The notes under the pieces: model-generated | Told to the model about the DNA's origin: nothing | The model's database searches: none | Seen by the model: the letters and a program-made list of their open reading frames with translations, nothing else | Program-made: the position numbers and the translations under genes | Part shown: positions 2,216 through 59,168 of the stretch, piece by piece | Layout: every line of letters starts with the position of its first letter | Position numbering within the stretch: position 1 is the stretch's first letter | Source: a virus | Lineage: Duplodnaviria; Caudoviricetes | Virus record (IMG/VR): IMGVR_UViG_3300032269_001670 | Location: 21,708 to 85,707 of that record | Direction: 5' to 3' (one strand) | Length of the DNA: 64,000 bases

Positions 2216-2217
2216 GT

Positions 2218-2616
2218 ATGGCTTTAAAGATTGCCGCTTTTCTTGGGCTCTGGTTTGGAGTCACCGCAGCTATCCTGATCAACACCCCTGCCAAAGGAAC
2301 GGATTCCTCTCGGTTTTCTGACCAGTTGGTAGCCCTGCATGAAGAAGTATTTTATTGGCACGAGAGTATGTACATTGGCGGAGCCGGAGCCGAGTGGAAG
2401 CCTGATTGGGACTGGTACATGGACTTGCAGGGGAAGATTGAAAGGTTCCAGGCGGAACTCGACCGTGCCCCCAATAGCTCGTGTGCAAACGAAGCTCGTG
2501 CTATCGTCATCTTGCACTGGCCATGGCTTGCCACAAGTCCTGCTGACATTGCCGGGGTTGAGCTCCGATGGAAGGAATCTATCGACAAACTGCCGTTATT
2601 GTGTGGAGAGTTTTAA
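2218..2616 (+). CDS. Secreted or membrane-anchored hypothetical protein
   Basis: N-terminal hydrophobic signal-like segment; tightly packed in the operon. Confidence 0.75.
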   Translation: MALKIAAFLGLWFGVTAAILINTPAKGTDSSRFSDQLVALHEEVFYWHESMYIGGAGAEWKPDWDWYMDLQGKIERFQAELDRAPNSSCANEARAIVILHWPWLATSPADIAGVELRWKESIDKLPLLCGEF

Positions 2617-2628
2617 GGAGGCACGAGC

Positions 2629-3030
2629 ATGACGAAGAAGAAGGTGATTACCGCCGACGACGTGCGAGAGATGAAGGCCATGCTTGACATGGTGAACTTG
2701 TCGTCTCTTGATAAACCATACGGGGAAGATAACGAAGCAACGCTAGGAGATCTAGTCGAGTCCCCGGGGCCATCCCCAGAGGAGCTTAGTCTCACGTCTG
2801 ATATGGTGCGCCTCATTCACGAGATGCTTGAAAGCCTTCCCGACCGGGATCGAGACATCCTTTGTATGCGCTACGGGATCGGCCTGAATCGCCCAATGAC
2901 GATGGAGGAGGTAGGCCAAAAGTACAACCTGAGCCGTGAGCGCGTCCGCCAGATTGAAAATGCCGCGCTGACAACGCTCCGGCACCCGAGCAGGATGCGA
3001 AAAATGCGTGCATATTCGGTGGCAGGATGA
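2629..3030 (+). CDS. Stand-alone sigma70 region 3.2-4 protein (no regions 1-2)
   Basis: SLDKP...TLGDLVE, LPDRDRDILCMRYG, TMEEVG...SRERVRQIENAAL..LRHPSR match the RpoD C-terminus; SD AAGGAGG. Confidence 0.9.
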   Translation: MTKKKVITADDVREMKAMLDMVNLSSLDKPYGEDNEATLGDLVESPGPSPEELSLTSDMVRLIHEMLESLPDRDRDILCMRYGIGLNRPMTMEEVGQKYNLSRERVRQIENAALTTLRHPSRMRKMRAYSVAG

Positions 3031-3254
3031 AAGCAAATCGACTTGAGGGAGCCCCAACCCCGGATGAAGTACTCGTTGCGATGCGTGAATACATGGACAC
3101 TTGGAACCGAGCTCCGACGTTCCGCGAGATGACCGAGATCCTTAATTGCGGTCGAAGCACTGTACAACGCGCCGTCAATAAGCTTGAACAGGACGGGTGG
3201 ATTATGCGTCGTCCGTACGGCACGCGCAGTTGGAAGATTAAGCGCATCCGATAA
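3027..3254 (+). CDS. LexA-like N-terminal winged-helix DNA-binding domain only
   Basis: APTFREMTEIL...STVQRAVNKLEQDGWI.R.PYGTRSW resembles the LexA DBD; no S24 peptidase domain. Confidence 0.8.
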   Translation: MKANRLEGAPTPDEVLVAMREYMDTWNRAPTFREMTEILNCGRSTVQRAVNKLEQDGWIMRRPYGTRSWKIKRIR

Positions 3255-3279
3255 TGAAGAAGCCGAAAAGCGCTAAGTC

Positions 3280-3837
3280 ATGAGGATTCGACTTCGCCCG
3301 GCGTACTCAGATGCCGCCTTAGCCAAGCTTTATCAGGTGCCGCACCAGCACGCCAAGTTCCCGGATCACATCCTTAGGGTAAAGATGACCATTGCGCTGG
3401 CTTCGTATTTTCCCAACGTTAAGACCATTGCCGACCTGTCTGCTGGAGACGCGACGATCATCAACGCTATCCACGCGGAAAAACGGTACATTGGGGACTT
3501 TGCCCCGGCCTATGAATTTGTAGGGCCGATTGAAAAAACCATTCACGAAATCCCTAATGTCGATCTCTTCATTTGCTCAGAGACCGTTGAGCATTTAGAC
3601 AACCCAGACGAGGTCTTGGCAATGATTAGCAAGAAAGCAAAGCACCTGATTCTTTCTACCCCGGTTGGGGAGATGAACGATCAGAACCCAGAGCATTACT
3701 GGGGCTGGGACCACGAGGGCGTGCGCGAGATGCTTTTGGCCTCTGGGTTTGCCCCCAAAGCGTTTGCCAACTTCAGGATAATGGGTATAGGCTACATGTA
3801 TCAAGCCTGGGCGTGTGACTCAAAACAAAGGATTTGA
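3280..3837 (+). CDS. Class I SAM-dependent methyltransferase-like protein
   Basis: IADLSAGDA (motif I-like), DLFICSETVEHL, LILSTP. Confidence 0.75.
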   Translation: MRIRLRPAYSDAALAKLYQVPHQHAKFPDHILRVKMTIALASYFPNVKTIADLSAGDATIINAIHAEKRYIGDFAPAYEFVGPIEKTIHEIPNVDLFICSETVEHLDNPDEVLAMISKKAKHLILSTPVGEMNDQNPEHYWGWDHEGVREMLLASGFAPKAFANFRIMGIGYMYQAWACDSKQRI

Positions 3838-31430: not shown

Positions 31431-33728
31431 TTAGGCACCAGCCTCAAGTTCTGCGATACGAGTTTCAAGGGCTTGATTCTTGGAAGCAAGCTCCTTGATT
31501 GCCCCGATGAGGAAGACGGGAAGCTGAGAATACTGAACGCTCTCAATCTCCCCAGTCTCTTCGTTGTATCGGCAAATGCGCTTCATATCCTCACTAATTG
31601 CCTCAACTTCTTCAGCAATCAATCCAGTCATTGTTCCGGTGTCTTCTGTTTTTGCGGTTTCAGGGTTCCACTTAAACGTTACTGGTCGCAGTTTAATGAC
31701 GTCGCCTAACGAAATATTAAGGTTGTCAATATCTTTCTTATACCTTCTGGCGGAACTAAACCTTGCAAGTGTTCCATATGCACTTGTAGAGTTGATATAG
31801 AGGTCAGAACTTGATGAGGTTGCGGTAACATTAACACGTAAGTCATCGTTAACAACAAAATAACCTGCTGATGTGCTGTAGTAGATATTTGGTGTTGAGC
31901 CAAAATAAACACCACTTGTTGCGCCAACATAAACAGCTCCGGTAGCAGTAACACTGCTAGTGGCACTAATTGATCCGGTGACTGCCAAAGTGTCACTCAT
32001 AGTAAAGTTTGCGCCGTTATGGCTAAGATTTCCAAGGTCGGTATTTGCAGAGTTTCGGAAATAAACTGTTGGGCTTACAGTCCCTCCGCGCAAATATATG
32101 GCACCGTGATATGTGTAGAAATATCCATTAGCAATCAGTCGATCACCGGTGACGTTTGACCCTGCAGTAAATGCGCCACTCGTGTTTAGGGTTCCAGTTC
32201 CATCAGATGAGTAAAGGTTTGCACCACCAAGAAATACTGGAGTAGTTGCGGTAAGAAACCCAAGTTCTCCATCAGCCAAAACGTCAAGGCCAGAAGTTCC
32301 ATATGCGTTAGCGTTGGCAGTCGCTCCAAGAGCCAAAGATCCGGCCAGCACTGCACCAGGAGAACCGGTGCTTGCGCCAGAAGATCCCGTAAGGGTTTCA
32401 CCGTAAAACTGATGGATTCCACCGGCATAGTATTGAATATTCGCGTACTTCCTCCAGTAAATAGTCGTACCGGCAGAAACTGCAGTTGTGTTGTTTGGCT
32501 TTGTAATAGTAAATGTGTTTGTTGCAACAGTTTTTACTCGGGCAGTTCCAACAACCAAGTTGGTGTTTGAGCTATACGTTGAAACGTACGTGCCGACAGA
32601 GAGTCCATGTGCGTTGCTTGTTACGGTGATAGTTGTGCTTGATTTTGCTGCAGTTGCAGTTACCGGTGGTTCATTAAGACCAACCGGAAGAGCAACGATG
32701 CTGGCACCAGTTTGCGAGGGTGTTGAGTCAAGGGCAATTCGAGCATTCGTTGAGCTATCACCACCAGTGATTGACGTTGATCCACCAAGGGTCACATTTC
32801 GGGCAAAAACAGAACCATCGGCATTTTGCGTATACGTTTTAACCACCGGAATTACAACTGGAGCATAGAGAGATGGAAGCGCTGCGCCCAATGTTCCATC
32901 AAATTCTAGGTCTTCTCCAAAACGTTGTTTGAAAGTAAACGTTGTGGTGTCAGGAACAGTAGCAACGTACCAGACACCGTCAAGTGTTTCTGCCGACCCA
33001 GCAATCTCTACGTAATTACCGACAACAAGACCATGTGCTGCGGACGTGACTACGGTAACTGTACTTAGATCTGCGGTGCCAACCGTTGCGTCAAATACGC
33101 GGGAAATGCTAGAAATTGCAATGACTTTTGCAACATACACAGTGCTTGCTGGATCATACAACAGTCCAGAGGTAATGTCTGATTTGCTGTAGGTAAGGTT
33201 ATTTCCCAAAACTGTTGCCGATGCATAATCCACCGGGCCGTTTGTTGGGAGATTAAGGCCAACGCCACCAAGCAGTGCCGAGCCATTAAAATACAGTCCG
33301 GAGACTCGGATATAATCACTAGTCACAATCCCATGTCCAGATGGAAGGGCAAGGGTAATAGTTCCGGATGAGGTAGAAACGCCGGTTGCCGCAACGTTTC
33401 CTCCAGCAAATCCCATTTGAACTGCGGCGTGATCCTCTGGGGCCCCGGACCATTTAGTATTCCAAGAAGGAACGGTTTGCAGCAAACCAGTGCGCATCAA
33501 GCTTGCGTCAATAACGCCGGCTTTTAGGTAGCTTGCGTTAATAACGCTGCCCGTATCATGCCTAACGCTAACAACCGGCTCCGTTCCGGCAGGGACAATT
33601 TCTCCATCTGATCGACGCTCATCAGCAGCATTGAGAATGGTAATTCCCGTGCTATTCACTTGAACAGCAGAAAACGTAGAGCCGTCACCGGCAATTGTTG
33701 GTGGTGTCTGAATATTCTCAATAGGCAT
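31431..33728 (-). CDS. Tail spike/fibre with C-terminal S74 intramolecular chaperone
   Basis: SSARRYKKDI...LRPVTFKW...GLIAEEV...AIKEL coiled coil. Confidence 0.9.
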   Translation of the reverse strand: MPIENIQTPPTIAGDGSTFSAVQVNSTGITILNAADERRSDGEIVPAGTEPVVSVRHDTGSVINASYLKAGVIDASLMRTGLLQTVPSWNTKWSGAPEDHAAVQMGFAGGNVAATGVSTSSGTITLALPSGHGIVTSDYIRVSGLYFNGSALLGGVGLNLPTNGPVDYASATVLGNNLTYSKSDITSGLLYDPASTVYVAKVIAISSISRVFDATVGTADLSTVTVVTSAAHGLVVGNYVEIAGSAETLDGVWYVATVPDTTTFTFKQRFGEDLEFDGTLGAALPSLYAPVVIPVVKTYTQNADGSVFARNVTLGGSTSITGGDSSTNARIALDSTPSQTGASIVALPVGLNEPPVTATAAKSSTTITVTSNAHGLSVGTYVSTYSSNTNLVVGTARVKTVATNTFTITKPNNTTAVSAGTTIYWRKYANIQYYAGGIHQFYGETLTGSSGASTGSPGAVLAGSLALGATANANAYGTSGLDVLADGELGFLTATTPVFLGGANLYSSDGTGTLNTSGAFTAGSNVTGDRLIANGYFYTYHGAIYLRGGTVSPTVYFRNSANTDLGNLSHNGANFTMSDTLAVTGSISATSSVTATGAVYVGATSGVYFGSTPNIYYSTSAGYFVVNDDLRVNVTATSSSSDLYINSTSAYGTLARFSSARRYKKDIDNLNISLGDVIKLRPVTFKWNPETAKTEDTGTMTGLIAEEVEAISEDMKRICRYNEETGEIESVQYSQLPVFLIGAIKELASKNQALETRIAELEAGA

Positions 33729-38812: not shown

Positions 38813-41800
38813 TTACCTCTTTACGTATCCGGTTGAGCGGAGCGCTCGAGCCTGTGCCGCCGCCACCCTCTCAGCCAATCGATCAATATCTGCAGCAGAG
38901 TTGAGCTGCGGATTATGGATGTTCACTGTACCACTAATTGGTGATCGAGATGGGTGTGCATGCACGTTCGGTGGGGTCATAGATCGTGGGCCACCAGTGA
39001 GGAGGTCCATAAGGAATCCAGGAGCAGACATTTCTGCCATTGTGCCGCCAATAGTTGCCCCAGTAATTCCCATAGTTTTTAAGAAATCTTTTGACAAATA
39101 ATTACTAAATCCGTTGTTATCTAATGCTTTCAGGCCCCAATTTTGTAAGAAAGTAAGTTTTGACGCCATTTGCACAAACTTACCTGGCTCATAACCTGGT
39201 TGCCCAAGATTTTCCCATGATTGACCAAGTTTATATGACCATGATCCTTCCTTCATGCCATTTTCTACGTATCGCTCAAGTAGACCTCCCGCTTTTCCCG
39301 CAAGAGCCCCCAATGGTGCTCCGGCGCGCATCAAAAGCATCCCAAGAGCAGACTTCCAGTCTCCGCCCATTTGCCCATTTCTGCCAAAACGCGCTACGGT
39401 CTTTTGCCAATCTTGCATATTGTTTAGGTTATGCATTCCGGAATCACCCGACCCAGTGCCAAAGGCATACCCACCCAGGCCCATATTGACAGCGCCAAGA
39501 GCTCCCGCAGACGAGCGCAACCAGGACGGAAGCTTGTGGTTCGGGACGACACGAATACCGTTTTGCCCAACTTCGATCATCTCCGGTCCGCGTTCGCCAA
39601 CCATGAACTGGCCGGCGCTGGAAATCATGCCGCCAGCTGCGCCTCCAGGAAGGATATACGATGGCAGGAATAACTGCGCATTTGCCTGACCAAGACTCGT
39701 TGGGCCACCAGTTCCGCCGCCATAAAGGGCGTTAGTGAGCGCCTCAATCAGGGATTGGTTGTTTGGCAGCAAGATGCCCTGCAGTGCCGTTCGGAAAGCG
39801 GAATCTTGACTCTTTACTTCAGATGCAAAGATCTCTGCGGTATCAGAGATATTGGCCATTTGATTGTTCAAACCAGTAATTGTCTTGACAAGCAGCGCCC
39901 GGATCTCGTCTTGCTTGTCTTGAGCAATATTTTTTCCTCCTCCGGTAGTAAAGTATCCTGGATCAACCTTTCCATTGGCGTACTTTTTGCCAAGGGCGGC
40001 AAGAACGCGCTGGACTGATTTCTTTTGATCAGCAAGATATTTTTCCTTGTACGTCTTTCCGGTAACCTTGGTCTGGCCTCCAGTGTTAAAGATGTCAAGG
40101 GCATCTTGCGCGGCCTTGTAAAGCTTGTCCTGTCGAGCGGCCTCGGCCGCTTTGGCAATTAACCCAGGAAGAGCTTTGAAGACCTTGGTTACGCTATTCT
40201 GCATGGCCTTCATAAAGCCATCGCCAAAGGACGACATAAACGAGTACCCCTGGCTTTGCGCAACGTCAAGATCAAGGCCGGCAGATGCAAAGATGTCTTT
40301 AAACTTCTGCTTGGCAGCAGCCGTTCCAATCCTTCCTTCTTGAATTTGCTTCATCAAATCGTCCATCTGCTCTTGGATGGATCGAGCCCGTTCTGCCTGA
40401 TCCTTTTGTAGGGCCTTTGCCTTGTCTTCGTAGTAGGTCGTTGTTTCCGTATAAGAAACACTACCCTTGCCGGCTTCAATCGCCTTGGACATTTGATCCA
40501 ACTTATTTGTGCCCATCTGGTTGAATAGGTCTCGAGCAGCTTCTCGAGCCTTGCGGGCGCGCTCCAACGGGGCAACAGATGCATCAAAGACATCAAGAGC
40601 AGCCTCAGCCGCAGCAGTACGCTGCTTCTCCAGCTCTGCCATCTTGTCCATCTCTTCGCGCTGCTGCTTCATGGCACCGTACTGCTCCTCAAGGACGCCA
40701 AGCCGAACCATTTCGCCGTTATACATAACCATAGTGTTCTCAAGGGCATGTGCCTTTTCATCCTCAAGCGCCTTCTTTTCGGCATCAAACATCTCTTGGA
40801 TAATTTCCTGAGTTCGTGACGTAAGTCGAGCAAGGTCAGTTTGGAATGGCTCTAACGCTTTCTGGTAAGCGTCCTGAGCTTCTTTTAGCGCTGCGCCAGT
40901 GGCGTCTAGGTTGTCGGAAAGCACCTTTGCAATGGCGTCCTGAGCCTCCTTGCTTCCGCCAGCAAGGTCCTTAAACATGGCTTTAACTTGATCAACCGTT
41001 TTTCCTGTTGCCTTGGCAATTTGCTCAAAGCTGGCCCCCTCAAGGAACATCTTCCCAGCAAGCTTATCGGGGCTTTGAAGAATAAGCGCCTGAGCATTTT
41101 GACGAAGAAGATCTTCCGGGCTGACTTTATCAAGATATTCTTTTTGCCAAGCAGCAAGCTTTTTGACCCACTCATCAAGCTGGTCTTTTATTTCGCCTTC
41201 ATTTGGCTGGTAGGCAAGTGCCTGCTCGGGGCTATAGCCATTCTCTATAAGGGTTTTATACAGGGTACTTCCCACTTGCACCTTGCCCGCCGTGGGCTTT
41301 TCTGGTGGAGCAGGAAGGTTGGTCGGAATATTCGGGAAAAGCTTTTGATATTCAGTTTTTCCATAGTAGTCAAGAAGTGTCTGCTGCGACGAGTATGCGC
41401 CTTGATAGTCAGCTGCTGCTTTTCGTTGCTCATCAGTTACTTGTTGATCCATCCACCATCCGACCAAAGCAGAAATTGCTATAAGAACACCAGCAATGGC
41501 GAGACCCATTGTTCCAAAAGCAACTTTAAGAGCATTTCCTGCCATGGCAAGACCGGAAATTCCAAAACCAACCTGTGTCAAACCATCGCCAATTGCTGTA
41601 AGGGTTTTGCTGTTAAGTGCTGAGCCCATCAGACTTGTAAACATGCCAATTCCCATCATGGCAGTACCAACCATCTGCGCCCTTGCGGCAATAGCCTTTA
41701 TGACTGTTTTCAAACTTTCAAGGCTAAGCCCAGTGGTCTTAAGTTTCATCACAAATTGGCCAAGTTGCGCAATTGAGCTCTGATTGGCTTCTTTGTAGGC

Positions 41801-44800
41801 ATTGGAAAGAGCGCGCATTCCGGAGGTGCCCATATCCTTCTTTAGAGCTGCCCACTCCACCTTTCCTTCAGCCGTGTTTCTATTGTTGTAAAGTTCCCTG
41901 TAGCGGCCCATAACAAGGTTGGCAGTTTCTGGATTTAGGGCATTATTCCGAACAAAAGCATTCTGGGTTGCCCCAGGAACTAGCGCACCGGCCGGGATAC
42001 CAGTAAGTTCCATACCATTTGCTGCGGCAAATTTAGGAAGAATATGCATTGCTGCTCGCATAAGCGCAGGGCTTCCGTACCCCATTCCAGCAACCCCAGT
42101 TTGCCCAAGCGCCATTGTCGGAGAGGCGCCCATCATTGCCGCCAGCCCCTGTGGTTCATTTACAGAAAGACCATACAGCTTATTTCCGGCATACATGCGC
42201 TTGCTGGCGCCAAATGCTCCACCCGCGCCCATAAAGCCACCCATGGCTCGGCTGTTTTGCATGCGTTCAAGTGCCTGGGCGGCAGCCATGGTCGCATTCC
42301 CGAACTTTCCCATTGCGGCGGCCATGCCGTCCACAAGAACCTTTTTGCCGATAAACGCAGCAAGGGCCATACCAATGATGCTGGCAAATGGTTTAACTGC
42401 CGCGCCAATCTTGCTAAATACGTCAAGTAGGGTTATAAGAATTGGAGACAATGATCGAACAAGGGCCCCCATGGTGGCAAGGAATGTTTCAATTCCCGCA
42501 GAAAGACCCTCAGTTACTCCTGGAACAAAGTTATCACTAATTCTTGCAAGAATCTTGTCAAACTGTGGTTTCACCCGATCAAATAGATCGCCAAAGCCAA
42601 ATGAGTTATTTTTTACTGCGGTCGAGATTGCACCGATTGCGGTGGTTACCAAGCCAATAGTTGCCAACAGGGGGTTAGATGCAAGGGTGGACATTAGCAA
42701 CTTTGCGGCAATTGCAGCTACGCCAAGATTACGAATCACATCGTTTTCAAGAAGTTTTCCAATAGTGCCAATCCCGGCGCTGAAGTTTTGAACTAGACCA
42801 CCAAGTGTTGATTTGGTGCTGCCAAGGGCTGATCCAAGTTTTCCAAACGTTGAAACAAAGCTACTACCAAGTTTCATGATGGCAGAAGCAAATCCTGGAA
42901 TGAATTGACGCAGTGCCATTGCAATCTTGGAGATTATATCGCCAAATGCCTTAGACTTGTTAATCCATTTTTCTGTTTGGAACAAGTCTGCTAGCTGCAC
43001 CGTAAAGTCTCGAACAACATCGAACAACGGCTTAAAGCTTGTTGCAATCAAAGATTGTGAGGTATCCGCAAGCGTGGTCATCGCTCCCGAGAACGTTCGG
43101 GAGTACGCCATCATTCCTCCGCCATAGCGCTCCCCAAGGCCCTGGAGAATGGCCTGCACGGACTCCGGTCCGGATAGTCTGCCGACTCGAGCGAGCTTGC
43201 GGATTGTCTCGACGGCGGTCTTTGGGTCAAGCAGCTTTTTATAAATCTCCATGTTAGCTTTCTTGAGCGCTGGATCTGCCTCAATCTGCTTGATAACCGC
43301 CTGTGACAAGATTTCATACCCGGCAATACCAGCGTTCGCCAGCTGCATCATGTCGTTTTGGTAGACGCGACCAGCGGAGTTCATCTGACCAAGGGCATAC
43401 GTGACGCGGCGGAGCTTGTCGTCTTCTGCACCAAGTGCAGCTACGGCGTCGCCAATGTTAACAAGAGCTCCACGGAACTGCTTTGCCTCTCCGGTGAGCT
43501 TGCGCCATGGGTTTGGAATCTCCTCCAAAATAGCCATTTGCCCCTTGGCCTTTGCCTTCACGGAATCGATCTCAAAACCGAATGCCTTCATGCGGAGGGC
43601 TGCGGTCTCAAGATCACCGAATCGGAAGTTTGTAACGTTGGCAAAGTCACGCAAGACAACGATGAAGTCATCCGTCTTTTTCTTGGCATCCTCTAAGCTA
43701 TACCCGGCATTGTGGAACAGGGTGGTAAATCCAACCGAAGCGGCCTCAATCTTTGCGTTGAACTCAATAATACCGCCACGCAGGTGGTTAATCATTCCTA
43801 CGAAGGCGAATACTGCTTGCTGACCAATGGCAAGGTTTGCGGCAAACCTCAAGGATGACATCGCACCAGCAGTGAAGCCAGTACCAACCTCAGTCATCAC
43901 CTTTCCAAGCTGGTTGAAGTTGATATTTCCCGATCCCATAACTCGATTGAGTCGCGTCTGTGCGTTGGCCATTGCCTCGGTTTCCATGACCTGCTTTTGA
44001 TAGGCAACCTTTGCTCCACTCTTAAGTTCCGCAGATTGCAACCCGCGAGTAGAATAGGCCTCCCTAGCCTGTCGGAAGGCAGAGAGTGGCGCCCCAAGCG
44101 GTGAGTTATAAAGCGCTGATCCGGCAAGGCCGCGAGCATTCGCAAGGCTTTCTTGAATTTGCGCCTGCGGCATCATGAGGCGCTCCATGCCAACGCCACG
44201 GAAGAATCTTCCGCTTAGACCGCCGCCGGATACAAGCGCCTGTCCGTAATAGCGACGGATTGACTCAGCTGCGGTTTCTGGATTGTATGGAACGAGTGCG
44301 CCACCGCCAGTGAATGAGCCCGGTTGTCCTGGGGCGCCTGGTCGCGCCCCCTGCAAGACAACTCCTCCAGGGATTCCCGTATGCGGAACGTTCTCGAGAA
44401 GCATTGGCAGCTCCCTCGTTCCTCGACCGGCGCCTCGACTTGCTCGTCCGCCCGTAACAAGCCGCTCTGCGGCGGGAATTTCTGCCTTAGAAACTTCTTG
44501 GAACGAACGAACAAGCTGCCGAACCATTTGATTGGCTTTTTCCACGTGTTCCACATTCTTTGGATCAAAGAACGGCTTTGCGCCAGGAGCTTTAACAAAA
44601 GATTCTGGGTTCATGCCGAGTGCGAGCATGCCTTTCTCCAGCGGAGACAGGCCCACAAGATATTTTGCTACCTCTGATCGGGCACCGGAAATTTCTTGCA
44701 TTGGGCGAGAAAGTTGGCTTTCTGGGCCAATAAGCGCTGTTGTTCCTTGCGCGGCAGCAGAAAGCAGTCCCATGCGTGTAGCCTGAAGGTTCTTGCCCTT

Positions 44801-47800
44801 AAAGCTTTCTGGCGTCAGGCCAGATAGGTAATTGCCAATGTGCGATGCGGCCTGCAAGCCTCCCGACTCTGGGAGAAGTCCCAGGCCAATGGCAGATCCA
44901 AATGATCGCTGGGCATAACGCTGTAGGCTTCCAAGCCCCTTACCAGTAGTTGATCCAAGTTTGTTGTAAATGTTTTTAATTGTTTCAAGATAATTATTAA
45001 CAAGTTTAGTCTGCGCTGGGCTGGCAAGCTTTTGTAGTTCTGGTAGCAATCGGGCCGCCTCTTTGCCAACGCCAAACTCTGACATTGCTTTTTGGTTACC
45101 AAAACCGCCCGGAACAGCCTCGCCCATAAGTCGATGGAATGCCAGCTGTGCCGGAAGAGCTCCAGAAGACTTGGAAGTTGCTGCTTGCAGTCGATAAAAC
45201 TCTGGGTCAAGGTGTCCAGCAGACATCGGCTCTCCGTACCGAGCGGCAGCGAGGGCATGGGGCATGTATTGAATATTCCCCTGAGCATTGCGAACAATTT
45301 GACCTTGATTGTTAATTTGCGGAACTTCTGCTGGGTTTCTATAGCCCTGGCGCATGCGCTCTTGGAATTGTCCATGCGACAACTCATGAATCATAGTGCG
45401 CAAAACTGACCCGCTTGATCGTTGTCGCAGGCCAGTAAGCAGCATGGAATTCTCCGCCGTGTTGTACATTCCCTGCAGTCCGCCCATTCCGCTTTCTGCA
45501 AGATTAAGGCTGGTCATTCTTCGAGCAGGTAGATATGTTTCAAGGAATGGTCGAAGCAAAGTTGAGAACCGTTGCATACCTTCAGGGCCGCCTTCGGTTT
45601 GGGCGTTTACTTGGGTAGATGCCAACTTTTCACCTTGGAGTGATCGAAGCGGGCCAAACTTTTCTGACAAAATGCTGATCTGTCGTGCCTGCTCTCGGCT
45701 CGAAAGGCCTTTGAACTCTGTTCCAGACATGAGCGCGCGCATCTGTTGGCGCAACTCATTGGCCTTCTGTGTATTTAGGACAGATTCATTTGGGTCAACA
45801 AGGTACTTACCGGTCTTTGCATTAAGGCCAGCAAGAGACATGTTGTAGTTTGATCGCAACCTAGCCAGGGTTGCGCGCCCTCCAGCCGCAGCATAGAGCG
45901 GGTTGGTTGGGTCTCCTCCGCCGGCTCCAGACAGTGCTGTTGGGCGGCCGCGACCGCCACCACCGGCTCCGCCGGTAAGCACCTTTTCGGCCTCCTTAAC
46001 GACTTTCTCCTCTTCCTTTGCAACTTTCTCTTTTGCCTTGGAAGTTTTTGTGCCAGCCTCGGCCGCTTTTGTAGTCGCTACTGCTTCCTTCTGTTGAGTC
46101 TTTAGGGCGGTTCCAAACATTGCCGTAACAGACGCGGCAAGTTCTTCGTGACCATTTAGGGGATCAAGTGAAACGCCACGCTCTTTTGCAAGAGCTCGAA
46201 GATTGTTGGCCATTTGCAGTTGACCCATAGCAACTTCTGGAACTGCGCTGCGCGGTTGAGCAACGTAGTTTTGCAAATTTTCCATAAGCTTCATGTATCC
46301 GGTGGCAAGGCGGGTATTGAACACGCCTTGTCGCTTTGGGTCGGATTCTGCGTATGGGATATACCCACCGGCTCGCGCCTTGACGCTTCCCTGGGCAATA
46401 CCAAGCTCACGAGGAGAGATGCCATATCCACCCTCGGGGGTTGCACGATACGCATTTGGTCGTCGGAATCCAGGGTTTGCCTTGGCAACCGTTTCAACAA
46501 TCGCTTCAGATGCCGTAGTCGCTACTGCCTCACTTGCGGCTTTAACGGCAGGCTTTGCGGCAATGGCTGCAGCTGTTGGAACAGCCTGTGGCATGCCAGA
46601 GAAGACTTCATTCAAAACCGTCTCAAACAACGCAGCTTTTTGGGCGGAAGATCCCTTGCCCCTCATCCCCTTTGACCCCTGCACATATCGATTAGATGCC
46701 TCAATAGCCATCCGTACGGCCTGGCGAGGATCAGCCTTCATCGACCCGCCTTCTTCGCCAAAGAGGCTTGCCTGGGCTCCTTCTGCCTTTGCCCCATAAG
46801 AAGTCATTGTGCTTAGGAATGCGCCAAGACCACCAGATGGAACGGAAAGCATTGCAGAAGCTAGGCGCACATGCTCGCGTGGGATTTTTCCTCCAAACAT
46901 AGTCTTTTGTGAAAGAAGCGCGCGCGCTGCGCCAAGTTGATTTCCAACAAGGCCCTCTCGTTGAGCGCCGCTAATCCATGCCTGAGGTCCAGTGGTGGCC
47001 TCTTGCATCAGCTTTAGGGCCCCAGGGAGGTTGTTAAAGATTGGGTCCATGGCAGCTGGCAGTTCACCACTCTCAATGCGGCCGCGCAGGCGCAGTTGTG
47101 GTCCAAGGTTGCGTTCAAGGGCCGCACGAGTAGTTGATCCAAGAGCGCTTGGCTCTTTGCTATACGCGGAGGTCAACATCTCGGCGGTGGCGGTGTTATT
47201 GCCGTATGCCTTGGCAACAAGCGTCTGCATCATCAGGTTGGTCATCTCGGTGCCAGTCCCAAAACGCTTCGATGCAAGTGTTGAGCCAAGCGCCTCTTCA
47301 ACTAGTTGGCCCCTAAATGCCGAGAATGCTTCGCCCTTACCGGCAGCAATTGACTTTCGTGGATCTCCGGCAAGGAGTGACTGTGGGAGCGGGCCAATCA
47401 TGCGAGACGCTGCGTGCGCGATCTCCTCAGTGGTCAAACCAGTTCTAGCGTTGAGCTGAAGACCAAGTTGACCTTGCTGACGTGGGCCAAGCTGCTCCAT
47501 AGAGGAAGTAAGACGCCGAACAAGCATAGGGGTTTCTCCGGCAGCAATAATTGCCTTCGCCTCTTTTGCCAATGCAGCAGTTTCGCCCTTGCCAAACTCT
47601 CCCGGGTTTTTCTTCATGAACTCAGCAACAGAACCTCGAATAACTTCTTTTCCAGTTTCCCCAAGGTTTTTTACAATTTGTCGCATGCCCAACGTTCGTC
47701 CGTTTCCAGAAAGAACAAACTCTTGCCCAGCTTGGTTTACTACTGTGGCAATAAGTCCTTCTTCAAGGTTAGTTGTTGGGGTAAAAATTTTCTCACGTTG

Positions 47801-49006
47801 AAACTTAGTTGACATGTTGTGAATTTCTTCTCGAGTTTTTTGAGAGAGTTGGGCTTGTGATCCTCGTGGTCGAGGCTGCATAACTGTTGGATAGCCACGC
47901 TCTGATTCAGTGGAGGCAATCATGCGCTCCAGAGAGGTCATGCCATATTTTGCGCCAAGCGTAAATGCGCCGGTACGCGGATCTTCATACATTCCTGGCT
48001 TACGAGGGCCAAATCCTGCCTCATCTCGGTACCCGCGACCATTGATAACCCCGCCAGCCTTTCGGGCAAGAGAAATGAAATTCTGCAAGGCGCGTGCGTC
48101 CGACGGTGTTCCTGGGAACGTAATCGGTTTGAACTCCCTATTTACCGGCTTTGCTACGGGATGCCCACTTGGCCGGCCCTCAATCCTCCAGCCCTGTTGC
48201 TCCAGTTGCATGAGGACATTACGCCAATCCTTTGGAATGCCCTTTAGGTCAGAAACGTCACCCCATCGGCCCTCTCGACTTCCGCCGCCCCTGCCACCTC
48301 CGGCGTAACGAGTTTGCGTTGGGGTTGGGTTTGCCTCAACGTAGCGCTTCTGCTCTGCAAGCTGACGGCGCATCTCAATTGCAGCTCGGAGCTGTCGGGA
48401 GCCCTGAGTATTTGGATCTGTGGCGCGAATATTTTCCGATTGAGCAGCCTGGACCATACGTGACCGCTCGCGCTCTAGGCGCTTAGTGGTTCCCCTGGCA
48501 ATTTCCTGTGTAATTCTTGACTCGCGCTCCAACATCGTTCGATGCGCGCGTTCCCTGGCAGCCCGCCCAGCCTCAAACTCTTTCATGAAATCAGAAGAGT
48601 CACGGAGGCCACTCATTGTTCGGCTGAGCCGCTGCATGGCCGGGATAGTCTGGCGGTTGATTGCCGTTGCCATGGCAACTGGATCAAACCCGGCATTGCG
48701 CGCCATTCTTCCGCCAAGAAGTGGGGAGGCGGCAGCAGTTCGATCAAGCTGACGAAGTGCGGGGATGGCTAAGCGCTGAATATCGCGCGCAAATCCTGCA
48801 GGGGTAAATGCTCCAGAGGCACCACCAGCGCGACCGCCAACGCCGAGTTGGCCAAGGTTGGTTTTCTGGCTGGCAGCCTGAAGCTCGCGCAGTCCGGTGA
48901 GGAGTCGGGAGATGTCGGCAAGAGCTCGGGCTACGCCAGAATTAAACGCAGACGAGTCTAGAGATAGACCTACGCTTGCGACATTCCCGCCCTTACCCTC
49001 AGCCAC
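38813..49006 (-). CDS. Tape measure protein fused to HicA-like, ddrB-ParB-like and HExxH domains
   Basis: Tape-measure core (RDFANVTNF...ALGQMNSAGRV...QLANAGI) from about aa 1750; GERGPEM; follows the chaperones. Confidence 0.92.
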   Translation of the reverse strand: MAEGKGGNVASVGLSLDSSAFNSGVARALADISRLLTGLRELQAASQKTNLGQLGVGGRAGGASGAFTPAGFARDIQRLAIPALRQLDRTAAASPLLGGRMARNAGFDPVAMATAINRQTIPAMQRLSRTMSGLRDSSDFMKEFEAGRAARERAHRTMLERESRITQEIARGTTKRLERERSRMVQAAQSENIRATDPNTQGSRQLRAAIEMRRQLAEQKRYVEANPTPTQTRYAGGGRGGGSREGRWGDVSDLKGIPKDWRNVLMQLEQQGWRIEGRPSGHPVAKPVNREFKPITFPGTPSDARALQNFISLARKAGGVINGRGYRDEAGFGPRKPGMYEDPRTGAFTLGAKYGMTSLERMIASTESERGYPTVMQPRPRGSQAQLSQKTREEIHNMSTKFQREKIFTPTTNLEEGLIATVVNQAGQEFVLSGNGRTLGMRQIVKNLGETGKEVIRGSVAEFMKKNPGEFGKGETAALAKEAKAIIAAGETPMLVRRLTSSMEQLGPRQQGQLGLQLNARTGLTTEEIAHAASRMIGPLPQSLLAGDPRKSIAAGKGEAFSAFRGQLVEEALGSTLASKRFGTGTEMTNLMMQTLVAKAYGNNTATAEMLTSAYSKEPSALGSTTRAALERNLGPQLRLRGRIESGELPAAMDPIFNNLPGALKLMQEATTGPQAWISGAQREGLVGNQLGAARALLSQKTMFGGKIPREHVRLASAMLSVPSGGLGAFLSTMTSYGAKAEGAQASLFGEEGGSMKADPRQAVRMAIEASNRYVQGSKGMRGKGSSAQKAALFETVLNEVFSGMPQAVPTAAAIAAKPAVKAASEAVATTASEAIVETVAKANPGFRRPNAYRATPEGGYGISPRELGIAQGSVKARAGGYIPYAESDPKRQGVFNTRLATGYMKLMENLQNYVAQPRSAVPEVAMGQLQMANNLRALAKERGVSLDPLNGHEELAASVTAMFGTALKTQQKEAVATTKAAEAGTKTSKAKEKVAKEEEKVVKEAEKVLTGGAGGGGRGRPTALSGAGGGDPTNPLYAAAGGRATLARLRSNYNMSLAGLNAKTGKYLVDPNESVLNTQKANELRQQMRALMSGTEFKGLSSREQARQISILSEKFGPLRSLQGEKLASTQVNAQTEGGPEGMQRFSTLLRPFLETYLPARRMTSLNLAESGMGGLQGMYNTAENSMLLTGLRQRSSGSVLRTMIHELSHGQFQERMRQGYRNPAEVPQINNQGQIVRNAQGNIQYMPHALAAARYGEPMSAGHLDPEFYRLQAATSKSSGALPAQLAFHRLMGEAVPGGFGNQKAMSEFGVGKEAARLLPELQKLASPAQTKLVNNYLETIKNIYNKLGSTTGKGLGSLQRYAQRSFGSAIGLGLLPESGGLQAASHIGNYLSGLTPESFKGKNLQATRMGLLSAAAQGTTALIGPESQLSRPMQEISGARSEVAKYLVGLSPLEKGMLALGMNPESFVKAPGAKPFFDPKNVEHVEKANQMVRQLVRSFQEVSKAEIPAAERLVTGGRASRGAGRGTRELPMLLENVPHTGIPGGVVLQGARPGAPGQPGSFTGGGALVPYNPETAAESIRRYYGQALVSGGGLSGRFFRGVGMERLMMPQAQIQESLANARGLAGSALYNSPLGAPLSAFRQAREAYSTRGLQSAELKSGAKVAYQKQVMETEAMANAQTRLNRVMGSGNINFNQLGKVMTEVGTGFTAGAMSSLRFAANLAIGQQAVFAFVGMINHLRGGIIEFNAKIEAASVGFTTLFHNAGYSLEDAKKKTDDFIVVLRDFANVTNFRFGDLETAALRMKAFGFEIDSVKAKAKGQMAILEEIPNPWRKLTGEAKQFRGALVNIGDAVAALGAEDDKLRRVTYALGQMNSAGRVYQNDMMQLANAGIAGYEILSQAVIKQIEADPALKKANMEIYKKLLDPKTAVETIRKLARVGRLSGPESVQAILQGLGERYGGGMMAYSRTFSGAMTTLADTSQSLIATSFKPLFDVVRDFTVQLADLFQTEKWINKSKAFGDIISKIAMALRQFIPGFASAIMKLGSSFVSTFGKLGSALGSTKSTLGGLVQNFSAGIGTIGKLLENDVIRNLGVAAIAAKLLMSTLASNPLLATIGLVTTAIGAISTAVKNNSFGFGDLFDRVKPQFDKILARISDNFVPGVTEGLSAGIETFLATMGALVRSLSPILITLLDVFSKIGAAVKPFASIIGMALAAFIGKKVLVDGMAAAMGKFGNATMAAAQALERMQNSRAMGGFMGAGGAFGASKRMYAGNKLYGLSVNEPQGLAAMMGASPTMALGQTGVAGMGYGSPALMRAAMHILPKFAAANGMELTGIPAGALVPGATQNAFVRNNALNPETANLVMGRYRELYNNRNTAEGKVEWAALKKDMGTSGMRALSNAYKEANQSSIAQLGQFVMKLKTTGLSLESLKTVIKAIAARAQMVGTAMMGIGMFTSLMGSALNSKTLTAIGDGLTQVGFGISGLAMAGNALKVAFGTMGLAIAGVLIAISALVGWWMDQQVTDEQRKAAADYQGAYSSQQTLLDYYGKTEYQKLFPNIPTNLPAPPEKPTAGKVQVGSTLYKTLIENGYSPEQALAYQPNEGEIKDQLDEWVKKLAAWQKEYLDKVSPEDLLRQNAQALILQSPDKLAGKMFLEGASFEQIAKATGKTVDQVKAMFKDLAGGSKEAQDAIAKVLSDNLDATGAALKEAQDAYQKALEPFQTDLARLTSRTQEIIQEMFDAEKKALEDEKAHALENTMVMYNGEMVRLGVLEEQYGAMKQQREEMDKMAELEKQRTAAAEAALDVFDASVAPLERARKAREAARDLFNQMGTNKLDQMSKAIEAGKGSVSYTETTTYYEDKAKALQKDQAERARSIQEQMDDLMKQIQEGRIGTAAAKQKFKDIFASAGLDLDVAQSQGYSFMSSFGDGFMKAMQNSVTKVFKALPGLIAKAAEAARQDKLYKAAQDALDIFNTGGQTKVTGKTYKEKYLADQKKSVQRVLAALGKKYANGKVDPGYFTTGGGKNIAQDKQDEIRALLVKTITGLNNQMANISDTAEIFASEVKSQDSAFRTALQGILLPNNQSLIEALTNALYGGGTGGPTSLGQANAQLFLPSYILPGGAAGGMISSAGQFMVGERGPEMIEVGQNGIRVVPNHKLPSWLRSSAGALGAVNMGLGGYAFGTGSGDSGMHNLNNMQDWQKTVARFGRNGQMGGDWKSALGMLLMRAGAPLGALAGKAGGLLERYVENGMKEGSWSYKLGQSWENLGQPGYEPGKFVQMASKLTFLQNWGLKALDNNGFSNYLSKDFLKTMGITGATIGGTMAEMSAPGFLMDLLTGGPRSMTPPNVHAHPSRSPISGTVNIHNPQLNSAADIDRLAERVAAAQARALRSTGYVKR

Positions 49007-49019: not shown

Positions 49020-49271
49020 TCATCCGCCGGACTGCCCACCGGGCTTGCCGAACACGGAAATCATCTGCTCAAGTGAGCCGATGTTGCTCATTCCCTTGCT
49101 ACCTTCGGCAAACTTCGCTCGGTTCTTAGAGCTCTTCGAAGACGAGGATGAATTATCCTTCATCTCTTTATCACGCTGTTCGATATATTTTGCGAATGCG
49201 TTTAGCTGGGGTAGCGTGAGTTGCATGAAATCGTTTGGGGTATAACCAAAGGCATCTGCGTAAGACGCCAT
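49020..49271 (-). CDS. Tail assembly chaperone, T part (reached by -1 frameshift)
   Basis: In frame with the -1 frame from the slippery site; precedes the tape measure. Confidence 0.8.
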   Translation of the reverse strand: MASYADAFGYTPNDFMQLTLPQLNAFAKYIEQRDKEMKDNSSSSSKSSKNRAKFAEGSKGMSNIGSLEQMISVFGKPGGQSGG

Positions 49272-49300
49272 GATCGATCCCCAGTCGATCTCAGACCAGC

Positions 49301-49588
49301 TTACGCCTCCGCTTTTCCCTCGATGCCCTCTTCACCGCTGCCAATCAGGCCGCTTGAACGGAGCACCTTGTCGATCTCGTCACGCATAGTGTCAAGCGAG
49401 AATCGCTCGCCAACGCCGCGCTCGTCGATCTTGGGATCATCCTTGCGAAGGACAAGCCAAAGAATGTAGCGAAGAACAGTGAAACGTGTCAGGTCAACCT
49501 TGTCAAGGCCACCAAACTTCTCCTCAATGTCAGCGAGATCATTGAGGTTGAGTACGCGCGCAGCGCGCACCTCATTAAGGTTCGCCAT
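49301..49588 (-). CDS. Tail assembly chaperone G
   Basis: Between tail tube and tape measure; SD AAGGAG. Confidence 0.8.
   Translation of the reverse strand: MANLNEVRAARVLNLNDLADIEEKFGGLDKVDLTRFTVLRYILWLVLRKDDPKIDERGVGERFSLDTMRDEIDKVLRSSGLIGSGEEGIEGKAEA
49313..49319 (-). promoter_or_regulatory. -1 ribosomal frameshift heptamer G GGA AAA
   Basis: The -1 frame is open (SGGVSWSEIDWGSI) into ATG 49271, 42 nt away. Confidence 0.85.
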
Positions 49589-51913: not shown

Positions 51914-53191
51914 ATGACAGAAAATTATCGGTATCTGAGGCCGTGGTCGGCTGCAGAAAAGCAGGATGCTTTAAAGATGGATTTTAGCGAGTTTGGCAAA
52001 ACGTACCCAGATCGTTCGATTCACGGGTACAAGATCATGCGAAACAAGCTGCTCCGGGGAGAGAAGTCTTTTATTGATCGGCGGGCCTTCAATGGTCGCT
52101 CGCCGGAGATTATCCCCGGCACGTTGCGGGAGGCCATTGCGTCTGCTCGCGGAAAGGTGGAACTTGTGAAGGAAGTTGCCGAAAAAGAAGTTGCTTCGTA
52201 TGAGGCAATCGGCGAGGTTGAGCGGCTCAAGTCCGCTCACCGCAAGGCACTGAAGAAGTTGGAAGACAAAGAACGCGACCGAAACGAGCTTGTTGAGGCT
52301 GTTTACCAGGCAGCCCGAGAAGCTTCTGCGGCAATGAATATTGCCCCGGTTGCTCAACCGAAGGCAGATAAGCGCAAGGCCGATGATGAAACAGCTATTT
52401 TGCTGCTTTCAGACTGGCAGCTTGGAAAAATTACACCGACGTACAATTCCGATGTCGCCGCAGAGCGCATTAAGTCGCTCTCTGACAAGGTGGAGCGCCT
52501 TGTCGAGATTCAGCGTGCAGCACATCCAGTCAAGGAGCTCCGCGTGTATCTGCTTGGCGACTTGGTTGAGGGGGAAGACATTTTCCCCGGTCAGGCACAC
52601 CTTATTGATGCCTCACTGTACAATCAGATTTTTCACGGTGGCGAGATCCTTGCCAATCTTGTTCGCCGACTGGCATCGGTTTTTGAGAAGGTGCGCGTTG
52701 TTGGCGTCATTGGCAATCACGGCCGTCTTGGCCGTCGCGGCACGTTCCACCCGGAATCCAATGCCGACGCCATGATGTACCGCATTGCTTCGATGACGTT
52801 GAAGGAGCAGAAGAACGTTGAGTGGGTGGAGACCATCTCCGCCGGCGAACGTGCTTGGTTTGCGACCGATGAGGTTAAGGGTAAGACATGGTTCCTGTTC
52901 CATGGCGATCAGGTATCAGGTGGCTTTGCTGGGTTCCCTTGGTATGGGTTTGGCAAGAAGCTGCAGGGCTGGAACATGACTGTTGCGCGGTTTGATTACA
53001 GCGCAGCCGGCCACTTCCACACCCCAACGCGAATGTACCTGAACGGTATTACGCACTGGAGCGGCGGCTCTACGGAAAGCTCAAATACCTATGCCCAGGA
53101 GCAGCTTGCCTCTGCTGGCGAACCATGCCAGTGGTTGCTGTTTCAGCATGAGAGTGGTGTGACGGCGGAGTATTTGATCCGCTTAAGCTAA
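51914..53191 (+). CDS. Calcineurin-like metallophosphoesterase with N-terminal coiled coil
   Basis: SDWQLG, LGDLVEG, GNHG, FHGD, GHFH motifs. Confidence 0.9.
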   Translation: MTENYRYLRPWSAAEKQDALKMDFSEFGKTYPDRSIHGYKIMRNKLLRGEKSFIDRRAFNGRSPEIIPGTLREAIASARGKVELVKEVAEKEVASYEAIGEVERLKSAHRKALKKLEDKERDRNELVEAVYQAAREASAAMNIAPVAQPKADKRKADDETAILLLSDWQLGKITPTYNSDVAAERIKSLSDKVERLVEIQRAAHPVKELRVYLLGDLVEGEDIFPGQAHLIDASLYNQIFHGGEILANLVRRLASVFEKVRVVGVIGNHGRLGRRGTFHPESNADAMMYRIASMTLKEQKNVEWVETISAGERAWFATDEVKGKTWFLFHGDQVSGGFAGFPWYGFGKKLQGWNMTVARFDYSAAGHFHTPTRMYLNGITHWSGGSTESSNTYAQEQLASAGEPCQWLLFQHESGVTAEYLIRLS

Positions 53192-57056: not shown

Positions 57057-59168
57057 TTACTCCTCGCTGTCCAGCATGCGCTGGATGACGGGCGAAAGCC
57101 AAGGGGCCTTCGTCCCGGAATTGTTTGTAGGAACTGAATACGACTTGCGACCCGATGGGAGATCCATCAGTCGCCCGACGACATCAAGTGCCTTTGCAAG
57201 ATCAGCCTCGACCGTGGCCTTCTGGCTAAGTAGTTCGGTCAGCTGAGCCTTGACGGCTGCGACCTCCTGCTGAGCGGCAAAGGCTGCATCCAGCGCAGAC
57301 TTGGCGATAGCGGTTACCTCGTCGACAGCCGGAGCCTCGACAGCAACCTCAGCCTCAGGCTCTACAGGTGCCACAACTGGCTCCTCTACAACCTCAGGCG
57401 CAACTTCAGGCTTTGGCTCTTCGGCCTCCACCGCAGCCTCCGGCTCGCCATCAGCGGCAAGCTCAGCGACCTTAGAAATGATTCGCGCGCGCTCACCAGC
57501 GCTGGCGCGAACAAGGACGGCCCCAAGATCCTGCAGAACCTGGACAGCCGGATCAACGGCTTCCTCGGCAGCAGGCTCATCAGCGGCGGGCTCTTCAGCG
57601 GCAGGCTCAACGGCCGGCGCTTCAACCACGGGCTCCGCTACGGGCTCGGTGTCAGACTTGGCAATGTCAGCTGGGGCCTCTACGGCCTCGGCATCAATGG
57701 CCTGGTTTTCTTCTGCGGGCTTAACCTTTTCCTTGTCATCGCTTTGCGTGACAGTGACGGTGACCCGCGTGGCCTTTTCAGTATCCACGATAGTGTCTCC
57801 TTCAGTACCGCCCTCTTCTGGGGCCTCTGGTGTCTCAGCCGGTTCTGGCTGAGACTCTTCAGGGGCCAAAGAAGCACGAAGCTGCCATGACCACTTTTGA
57901 TGCATATCCTGGCGCTCTGCCAGGAAGTTAAGAATACCCTGCATGTTGAGGCGGGTAGCCTCACCAATGGCATGGGCGATGCAATCAAGAACCATCTCGT
58001 TAGCGGCGTAGACCGCCTCAGCAAGGCTCTCTTCGTCGTTGTCGTCTGCAACTGGCTCACCTTCGGCTCGAGAGGCAATCTCGCGGATATCGCCAAGGGC
58101 AGGAGCATTTAGTTTACGCAAGAGCTCAGCCGTTGGATCAATGGCCTCTTGAGCGTCTTCGTAGATCTCCCCAAACAGCTCGTGATACTCGCTAAAATCT
58201 TCACCAACAACGTTCCAATGGGCGCCATGCGCCTTAAGATAGAACGAAACCGTATCAGCAAGAAGGTCCTGCAACGCATTAACAAGAGCGGCGCGCTCAG
58301 GGGCTGGCTGACCTTCAACTTCAACAGCCTTCGTGTCAAATTCAAAAATACCCTTCAGGGAGTCAATCTTGCGCAAGGTGGAGCACTTATGCCCAACTAG
58401 CGTGTCGGTCTCCGCCCATCCATCGGCAGCCTCGCGCCAAATGCGGATAAGGGCAGCCGGATCTTCTGGCGTAGCCTCAATCTTGAAGTCAGAGTCCGGA
58501 ACACCAAGGGTGCCCTCGCGCATTACATGCTCAATGCGCCCTCGCGCGGTTCCGCCACTGGAGCCCCAGGAGACAAAATCTCCCTCAACCAAATCGGTTG
58601 CTGCTTTCTCATCAACGACAAGCTCGCCGGACTTCTCTGCAGCCTTGAGACTCTTGATAGCGTTCTGAAGGTATGAGCGCTGGTTGGCAGGAATGCCGAC
58701 GACAGATGCCTCCATCAGCTTGACTGAGTCGATAACATAGCTATCTTCACCAGTCTTTGCGTCCTTCTTCTTGGAGACGCGATCAACACGGGCACCGATG
58801 GATAGGCCAAGTTTGACGCCGCGCTTAATAGCCTTGTAGGCGCGCATAGCCTCTGGGTTCTCGTCCTCTTTGCAAACAAGGACATCAATGTCGAGGTCAT
58901 AGACCTCGGAGTTTGTCTCAGCATCAAAACGCTTGACAACGCGGGCATCGGTAACAGAGCCAAAAAGGTCCTCTGGCACATTGTAGTTATGGTTAAGAAA
59001 GATCGTCATATTCTGCTTGGCGGTGTCTGCCATCGTTCGGATAGCATTCAGCGTCATCTCGTCGCCATGCAGATCTCGGATCGTTGATGAGGTCGTCCCG
59101 GTGACATAGAGCTCGCCGTCTGACGCCTCATATGCCTTTAGGGCATTGGTGTACACCTTGAAATCCAC
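57057..59168 (-). CDS. HK97-type prohead protease fused to TUDOR-like, Dps/ferritin and acidic scaffold domains
   Basis: FLNHN...GLSIGA...LMEASVVGIPAN protease; HWNVVG..F..YHELF..IY......D...E Dps motif. Confidence 0.9.
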   Translation of the reverse strand: MDFKVYTNALKAYEASDGELYVTGTTSSTIRDLHGDEMTLNAIRTMADTAKQNMTIFLNHNYNVPEDLFGSVTDARVVKRFDAETNSEVYDLDIDVLVCKEDENPEAMRAYKAIKRGVKLGLSIGARVDRVSKKKDAKTGEDSYVIDSVKLMEASVVGIPANQRSYLQNAIKSLKAAEKSGELVVDEKAATDLVEGDFVSWGSSGGTARGRIEHVMREGTLGVPDSDFKIEATPEDPAALIRIWREAADGWAETDTLVGHKCSTLRKIDSLKGIFEFDTKAVEVEGQPAPERAALVNALQDLLADTVSFYLKAHGAHWNVVGEDFSEYHELFGEIYEDAQEAIDPTAELLRKLNAPALGDIREIASRAEGEPVADDNDEESLAEAVYAANEMVLDCIAHAIGEATRLNMQGILNFLAERQDMHQKWSWQLRASLAPEESQPEPAETPEAPEEGGTEGDTIVDTEKATRVTVTVTQSDDKEKVKPAEENQAIDAEAVEAPADIAKSDTEPVAEPVVEAPAVEPAAEEPAADEPAAEEAVDPAVQVLQDLGAVLVRASAGERARIISKVAELAADGEPEAAVEAEEPKPEVAPEVVEEPVVAPVEPEAEVAVEAPAVDEVTAIAKSALDAAFAAQQEVAAVKAQLTELLSQKATVEADLAKALDVVGRLMDLPSGRKSYSVPTNNSGTKAPWLSPVIQRMLDSEE

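Follow-up and report, generated by a model that had tools for sequence, protein, structure and literature searches.

A giant phage tape measure protein with an N-terminal ddrB-ParB domain and a probable zincin: a candidate virion-borne effector module

Enzymatic domains are found on several phage tape measure proteins, for example the Rpf-like motif of mycobacteriophage TM4 and the C-terminal peptidase of T5 pb2. Tape measures are expelled ahead of the DNA and may form a conduit through the membrane (PMC8718954, PMC13190303). A second group of large phage proteins, the phage-type polyvalent proteins, has the combination of an MPTase and a ddrB-ParB domain as its hallmark and is predicted to be injected; one example is P1 DdrB, which starts with a ddrB-ParB domain and ends with an MPTase domain (Iyer et al. 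2017, PMC5512222). The route proposed for polyvalent proteins leads through the capsid into the host, with MuF or portal domains as anchors. Here we analyse a tape measure gene, P0001, in a 64,000-nt stretch of viral DNA (the window), which comprises bases 21708-85707 of the 85,707-bp IMG/VR virus record IMGVR_UViG_3300032269_001670; the record has direct terminal repeats and is rated complete. A reading of the window made from its letters alone (the sequence-only reading) had proposed that ddrB-ParB-like and HExxH peptidase domains turn this tape measure into a polyvalent protein, half of which would be cargo, so that tail length would reflect only the C-terminal half. We lean, with moderate confidence, towards the interpretation that the N-terminal ~1630 residues form a multi-domain effector module that is carried in the virion and ejected. 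The features on which this interpretation is built are the following:

38813..49006, minus strand: tape measure gene P0001, one open frame of 3397 residues
47516..47950, minus strand: ddrB-like ParB domain, residues 353-497 (Pfam PF18763)
45119..45586, minus strand: candidate minimal zincin metallopeptidase domain, residues ~1141-1296 (alignment A2 and AlphaFold2 (AF2) model, see below)
45374..45388, minus strand: HELSH (HExxH motif), residues 1207-1211, invariant in A2
45194..45214, minus strand: HLDPEFY, residues 1265-1271, invariant in A2, in which either H1265 or D1267 is a candidate for the third metal ligand
38813..44119, minus strand: tape measure core and C-terminal part, residues ~1630-3397, with homology common to most of 76 IMG/VR loci

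The core starts late in the protein, as had been proposed before (near residue 1750 of 3397). TMP_3 matches residues 1836-1988 in Pfam (E 9.1e-10, 39.0 bits against a cut-off of 41), phrog_1686 (E 3.9e-6) and TIGR02675 (E 0.0035) match the same stretch, and a weak PhageMin_Tail match lies at about residues 1670-1790. A tblastn search with residues 1690-2260 found 87 cultured-phage records at ~23% identity, with E values down to 2e-11; the annotated records among the matches listed are tape measure genes. When IMG/VR was scanned with a relative of the protein, 76 loci were obtained, most of which align to the window protein only from residue ~1630-1740 onward. Residues 1540-1960 contain no convincing in-frame start preceded by a Shine-Dalgarno sequence that could serve as an internal start at the core boundary.

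Complete members of the family with 1537-1926 residues begin their core at residues 69-540, so the N-terminal ~1630 residues of the window protein are an addition that lies outside the minimal tape measure. The N-terminal half is absent altogether from these short relatives, which also have no HExxH motif (His content 0.07-0.37%). Eleven distinct viral contigs, all from uncultured viruses, carry the form that bears the ParB domain, and the longest of them measure 78-91 kb; seven of the eleven contain full-length, unbroken open reading frames (ORFs) of 3534-4469 residues, and these orthologues, all from IMG/VR, share 31-56% identity with the window protein. In 24 other family members Pfam yields no match at E 0.001 upstream of the core (up to ~1000 residues each), so the ParB module is specific to one subgroup. 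Relatives of the N-terminal half are also few among 1.84 billion representatives searched exhaustively with phmmer. Megablast and tblastn searches of 50,697 records of cultured phages gave no match to the N-terminal half, and a scan of bacterial and archaeal genomes found no prophage copies of the ParB region.

The ParB domain is the most clearly recognizable part of the module. PF18763 matches the window protein with E 4.5e-5 and 24.0 bits, below the curated cut-off of 27.6, and covers positions 9-118 of the 121 in the profile. We aligned the region in seven sequences with 33-52% identity to the window protein (alignment A1): all seven orthologues match ddrB-ParB (best E 2.3e-11), and P0006, a relative of 3824 residues found by phmmer, scores 40.9 bits and thereby exceeds the cut-off. 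Invariant in A1 are Y372, P373, Q377, P378, R379 and R381, E416 and G417, and S433, G434, N435 and R437. The ParB/Srx superfamily has a conserved arginine (PMC5512222), and the motif S433-G434-N435-x-R437 fits it, with R437 assigned by its position in the motif. A scan of IMG/VR with the A1 pattern retrieved more distant ParB relatives, which are parts of ORFs ranging from 645 to over 3200 residues. Four of these distant ORFs were scanned and score 55.7-114 bits for ddrB-ParB (E 7e-15 to 4.4e-33); tblastn ties the ParB family of the window to them with E values of 2e-9 to 8e-4. One of the four also carries LPD1, LPD5 and LPD38, another AAA_34, and profile searching revealed a 1506-residue protein that combines RelA_SpoT, ddrB-ParB and SLT. 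The earlier assignment of this domain as ddrB-like ParB is thus firmly supported by the match in every orthologue and by the link to classical polyvalent proteins, the window protein taken alone being under the cut-off; by sequence comparison it belongs, as a diverged member, to the family typical of polyvalent proteins in phages.

The second domain surrounds the only HExxH motif of the protein. From the composition 0.009 occurrences would be expected, His making up 0.7% of the residues, so the motif is not a chance occurrence. An alignment of this region (A2) contains nine sequences, most of them 31-35% identical to the window protein. It keeps RT..HE..HG.F, GY and H.DP.FY..QA unchanged; the invariant residues are R1203, T1204, H1207, E1208, H1211, G1212 and F1214 in the first part and H1265, D1267, P1268, F1270, Y1271 and Q1274 in the second. 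A sister group (L004, L014 and L011) that was missed by the hidden Markov model of A2 aligns with it in hhalign with a probability of 92.7% (E 4.4e-7). These three sequences keep D, P, F and Q and have E in place of H1265; because His and Glu are exchanged there, position 1265 suits a metal ligand. An invariant Glu that could be the third ligand is not found in the alignment; H1265-x-D1267 begins helix 139-151 of the AF2 model.

The AF2 model built on A2 has a mean predicted local distance difference test score (pLDDT) of 69.5 and a predicted template modelling score of 0.73. It consists of a helix, three strands (37-40, 49-53 and 58-62 in model numbering), a helix bearing HExxH (69-90), a later helix that starts from H.DP, and a four-helix bundle. 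Foldseek against the PDB gives no row below E 0.1; its top matches are the Zn peptidase 3c37 (probability 0.97) and Wss1 (~0.9). VIA-align superimposes Wss1 on model residues 1-152 with Z 7.4 and a root-mean-square deviation of 2.7 (99 of 113 residues aligned, 17% identity). A search of BFVD is topped by IrrE-like, SprT-like and M48 phage proteins with probabilities up to 1.00, the value of an IrrE-like protein, and E values from 0.015, and the neighbours in the ESM Atlas are LPD23, M91, SprT, M78 and M85 clusters (0.84-0.87, all below 0.9 and to be read as leads only). The HExxH peptidase of the earlier proposal is therefore probable: with its sole, A2-invariant HExxH and the zincin topology of the AF2 model, the region is probably a minimal zincin outside all curated families. 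A further candidate relative, P0018 (854 residues), was rejected: it is an insect-allergen repeat protein and its match to the HExxH region is spurious.

All motifs quoted by the sequence-only reading are present where it had placed them, HELSH (45374-45388) being one base off the position given there (45373-87). The other motifs are located as follows:

47870-47893: YPTVMQPR, residues 372-379
47696-47716: VLSGNGR, residues 431-437
47510-47530: PMLVRRL, residues 493-499
46757-46774: QASLFG, residues 745-750
45197-45217: GHLDPEF, residues 1264-1270

One of them, QASLF, had been compared to a beta-clamp-binding motif (QxxLF). Q..LF occurs once in the protein against 0.63 occurrences expected, which is the chance level, and QL[SD]LF does not occur in it. 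Only the window sequence has the motif: the 50%-identical orthologue reads Q..MF at this site, and the other five read T..TL, T..GM or M..TM, all lacking the Q. The idea of a clamp-binding motif is rejected because of this chance frequency and the lack of conservation.

The module is laid out as a conserved helical leader, a small HicA-like domain, the ddrB-ParB domain, a large all-alpha region, the probable zincin and a four-helix bundle, with Gly-rich linkers between them and an ordinary core behind. According to our preferred interpretation, the tape measure would act both as virion anchor and as delivery vehicle for this polyvalent-type set of effectors. Since the N-terminus of a tape measure is head-proximal, the modules would be the last part of the protein to enter the cell, beside the leading end of the genome. 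The zincin would cut the Gly-rich linkers and free the modules, and DNA or nucleotides would be what the ParB domain targets in the early phase of infection. A fuller scenario, in which the tape measure delivers the set, the modules enter last and touch the leading end of the genome, ParB holds or shields the DNA end at the site of entry through the membrane (for example against nucleases attacking it during injection), the zincin releases the modules and ~1770 residues set the length of the tail, is rather speculative and we regard it as unlikely in its entirety.

Several points weigh against the delivery of an effector module. The phage is known only from metagenomes; the identities, order and conservation of the domains and the lack of the module in short relatives follow from the comparisons above, but packaging in the virion, ejection, self-processing and biochemical activities are inferred. 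By our estimate, folded domains of this size would fit poorly side by side into a tube lumen of ~4 nm, a tape measure usually being present in three copies. In the sole AF2 model that covers the ParB region, residues 323-506 have a pLDDT below 50 over most of their length. As to the zincin, none of the structure matches reaches a Foldseek E of 0.001 and the Z score of 7.4 is in the range that the tool calls 'common'. No curated peptidase family matches (in Pfam DUF6782 has E 0.05, and WLM has E 0.083 in one orthologue), and in place of the usual Glu the third metal ligand would be H1265 or D1267. Finally, part of the N-terminal half could act as a ruler, because the low-confidence model of its first 1150 residues is ~64% helical, with several long helices, and other giant relatives have 1000 residues or more ahead of the core without recognizable domains.

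The remaining parts of the N-terminal half are the following:

48332..49006, minus strand: N-terminal helical region, residues 1-225, with long helices of low confidence in AF2
48026..48241, minus strand: small alpha/beta HicA-like domain, residues 256-327 (phrog_2089, E 8.3e-9)
45983..47449, minus strand: all-alpha region, residues 520-1008, of no known family, which holds QASLF
45902..45982, minus strand: Gly-rich linker, residues 1009-1035, seen in the sequence and disordered in AF2
44717..45022, minus strand: four-helix bundle after the zincin, residues ~1329-1430 (AF2 pLDDT 73-89), with only generic helical-bundle matches
44207..44509, minus strand: Gly/Pro-rich linker before the core, residues ~1500-1600, 29% G+P by composition

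Conservation within the N-terminal half is highest in the first ~90 residues: residues 8-91 are conserved in all ParB-bearing relatives with 51-55% identity in BLAST, and HMM matches are confined to the subgroup. The HicA-like domain is matched by ~20 stand-alone proteins of 67-110 residues (E 3.5e-7 to 9e-4); HicA_toxin matches it weakly in one relative, and AF2 predicts a helix, strands and a helix with pLDDT 62-77. A further Gly-rich linker at residues ~225-250 brings the linkers of the N-terminal half to three. The all-alpha region matches nothing in Pfam or the PDB, the PDB yielded nothing meaningful when searched by sequence and profile with residues 240-1400, A1 and A2, and Foldseek with the model of residues 1-1150 returned noise only. 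We also noted an in-frame GTG at residue 1009 (window ~45980-46000, minus strand), where the Gly-rich linker that precedes the zincin region begins, with a strong AAGGAGG 6 nt upstream; it could be an internal start or merely coding sequence (KEAEK).

Alternatively, the whole protein could be a ruler: the tail would then be ~500 nm long, its length would scale with nearly all of the 3397 residues, and the small domains would be inserts that aid envelope penetration or channel formation, like the peptidoglycan-hydrolase motifs of other tape measures. The AF2 model of residues 1-1150 (mean pLDDT 53.8) speaks for this option with its high helix content and helices of 33-58 residues, as do the long upstream stretches of the 24 other members in which Pfam finds no domain, and the size of the tape measures in this family, up to 4469 residues. 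Thermus phages have tape measures of ~5000 residues and tails of ~800 nm. The ESM Atlas, which gave low recognition and no usable lead for residues 520-800, lists a PhageMin_Tail cluster as third match (0.83, a lead only). However, these same residues are predicted as many short helices with pLDDT 70-84, which suggests a compact domain and not a rod; longer helices, of low confidence, follow at residues 800-1150. Moreover, the N-terminal half is broken up by three non-helical or mixed domains and by its three linkers, it is less hydrophobic in composition than the core (0.19-0.29 versus up to 0.40), and no role in envelope penetration is known for ParB and HicA-like domains. Taken together we consider a full-length ruler improbable.

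Somewhat less probable still is that the zincin of the protein removes the N-terminal half before or during tail assembly, so that this half would act in the producing cell only, as assembly chaperone or late DNA/nucleotide enzyme, and would not be delivered. Trimming during tail assembly is known from lambda gpH. The zincin lies ~430 residues upstream of the core and is followed by the Gly/Pro-rich linker, an arrangement that would suit such a cut, and self-processing parts do occur in this tail, the tail fibre having a self-cleaving Peptidase_S74 chaperone. In the case of P1 DdrB, processing precedes packaging (PMC5512222). However, action in the producing cell would make fusion to a virion protein needless, and the fusion is retained in 11 of 11 distinct relatives. 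The strong conservation of the extreme N-terminal 90 residues, unequalled elsewhere in this half, suggests a structural contact in the particle.

An artefactual origin of the long ORF, in which a chimeric assembly or the loss of a stop codon had linked a tape measure gene with one for a polyvalent protein, is very improbable. In the short metagenome contig L081 (3.3 kb, 1030-3352) the gene is in two pieces, split after the ParB region, but this results from a single +1 frame change in sequence otherwise collinear with L010, for which an error in sequencing or assembly is the most likely cause. One frame is kept in seven independent full-length orthologues, and the record of the window is a complete genome with terminal repeats. 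P0005 (322 residues), which looked like a stand-alone gene for HicA-like and ParB domains, was discarded as well: it is one piece of the split L081 gene, reported as a protein by a gene caller.

The genomic setting fits a tape measure, with small, chaperone-like ORFs on one side of the giant gene and distal tail genes on the other. Two neighbouring features are relevant here:

49020..49588, minus strand: two small ORFs of 95 and 83 residues directly upstream of the giant gene, in the slot of tail assembly chaperones
31431-33728, minus strand: tail fibre of 765 residues with a C-terminal Peptidase_S74 intramolecular chaperone domain (E 1.2e-8)

The gene order, with ORFs of 287, 95 and 83 residues, the giant gene, an ORF of 1693 residues and the fibre, is kept in relatives, where a pair of 97 and 77-79 residues likewise precedes the giant gene. 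Family searches yielded no match that would support a chaperone-like identity of the 95- and 83-residue ORFs, and in none of the nine scanned ORFs around the gene did they match a sheath protein; the uncultured phage probably has a non-contractile tail. Two further ORFs in this part of the window deserve mention. A prohead protease-like ORF of 703 residues (57057-59168, minus strand) matches phrog_3636, 'DNA binding protein', at residues 295-434 (E 1.6e-22) and is thus another structural gene with an added domain. An ORF of 425 residues (51914-53191, plus strand) lies on the opposite strand within the tail gene block; no Pfam family matches it, and counterparts of 422-426 residues are found at the same place in L002, L003, L004 and the contig of P0007.

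HExxH motifs are also found at other places in the family. Many relatives have a second one (HE[IT]GH) in a C-terminal insert, at residue 3463 in L004, 2895 in L005, 2918 in L006, 3858 in L008, 3901 in L010, 2488 in L015, ~3020 in L021-L023 and 2665 in L058; it is absent from the window protein and from L003, and the region around it matches no Pfam family. In two other giant lineages an HExxH lies about 560-600 residues upstream of the core (KTMLHEIEH and ATTAHEITH), namely at residue 442 in L016, L017 and L036 and at residues ~404-418 in L020-L024, L077 and L078. Aligned by hhalign with the domain of the window protein, these two lineages give weak matches (probability 10-38%). It appears that in this family either end of the tape measure can gain modules.

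If these domain types are fused to a tape measure in a conserved way, this would suggest that polyvalent-type effectors have a second route, through the tail lumen and directly ahead of the DNA. In the fuller, speculative scenario given above, a tape measure could carry a large payload that does not measure, with ~1770 residues setting tail length. The ruler model at 1.5 Å per residue predicts a tail of ~265 nm if only residues 1630-3397 measure and of ~510 nm if all residues do. The family contains natural controls for this: tape measures of 1537-1926 residues without the module and of 3400-4470 residues with it.

With regard to known systems, the probable peptidase shares in its AF2 model with minimal zincins of the Wss1/SprT and IrrE types a compact arrangement of a helix, three strands and the HExxH helix. 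In contrast to Wss1, to which the low identity given above applies and for which WLM gives no significant sequence-profile match, its candidates for the third ligand lie ~55 residues downstream in H/E-x-D-P-x-F, whereas the third ligand of Wss1 is a His just after the motif. AFP and PVC, which are extracellular contractile injection systems, hold a protein inside the tail tube and deliver it on firing, as is predicted for the window protein; the AFP toxin occupies the place of the tape measure (PMC8718954). Their cargo is separate and their particles are contractile, whereas the would-be cargo described here forms one covalent chain with a tape measure, and the particle is that of a DNA phage.

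The tape measures of TM4 and T5 resemble the window protein in that extra catalytic domains sit on a tape measure that is ejected into the cell envelope, which for the window protein is a prediction. However, their domains degrade peptidoglycan and are internal or located at the C-terminal tip end, while those of the window protein are of nucleic-acid- or nucleotide-directed types plus a protease, sit at the head-proximal N-terminus and add ~1630 residues. The closest likeness in content is to the polyvalent proteins: a ddrB-ParB domain and a zincin-like peptidase are combined in one late-gene polypeptide, with linkers to other small domains, and relatives of the ParB domain are found in large proteins with LPD1, LPD5 and LPD38. 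The window protein differs from them in having no detected LPD family and a zincin outside the curated families, and above all in its anchor. Described polyvalent proteins are packaged in the head and anchored by MuF, by portal or not at all; here a tape measure, with the module at its N-terminus, takes the role of anchor, which the main text of Iyer et al. does not describe and where the phrase 'tape measure' is absent (PMC5512222). With HicA-like, ddrB-ParB and probable zincin domains joined upstream of the core in one ORF of the tail module, the label polyvalent, as first proposed for this protein, is reasonable for it as a tape-measure-anchored variant.

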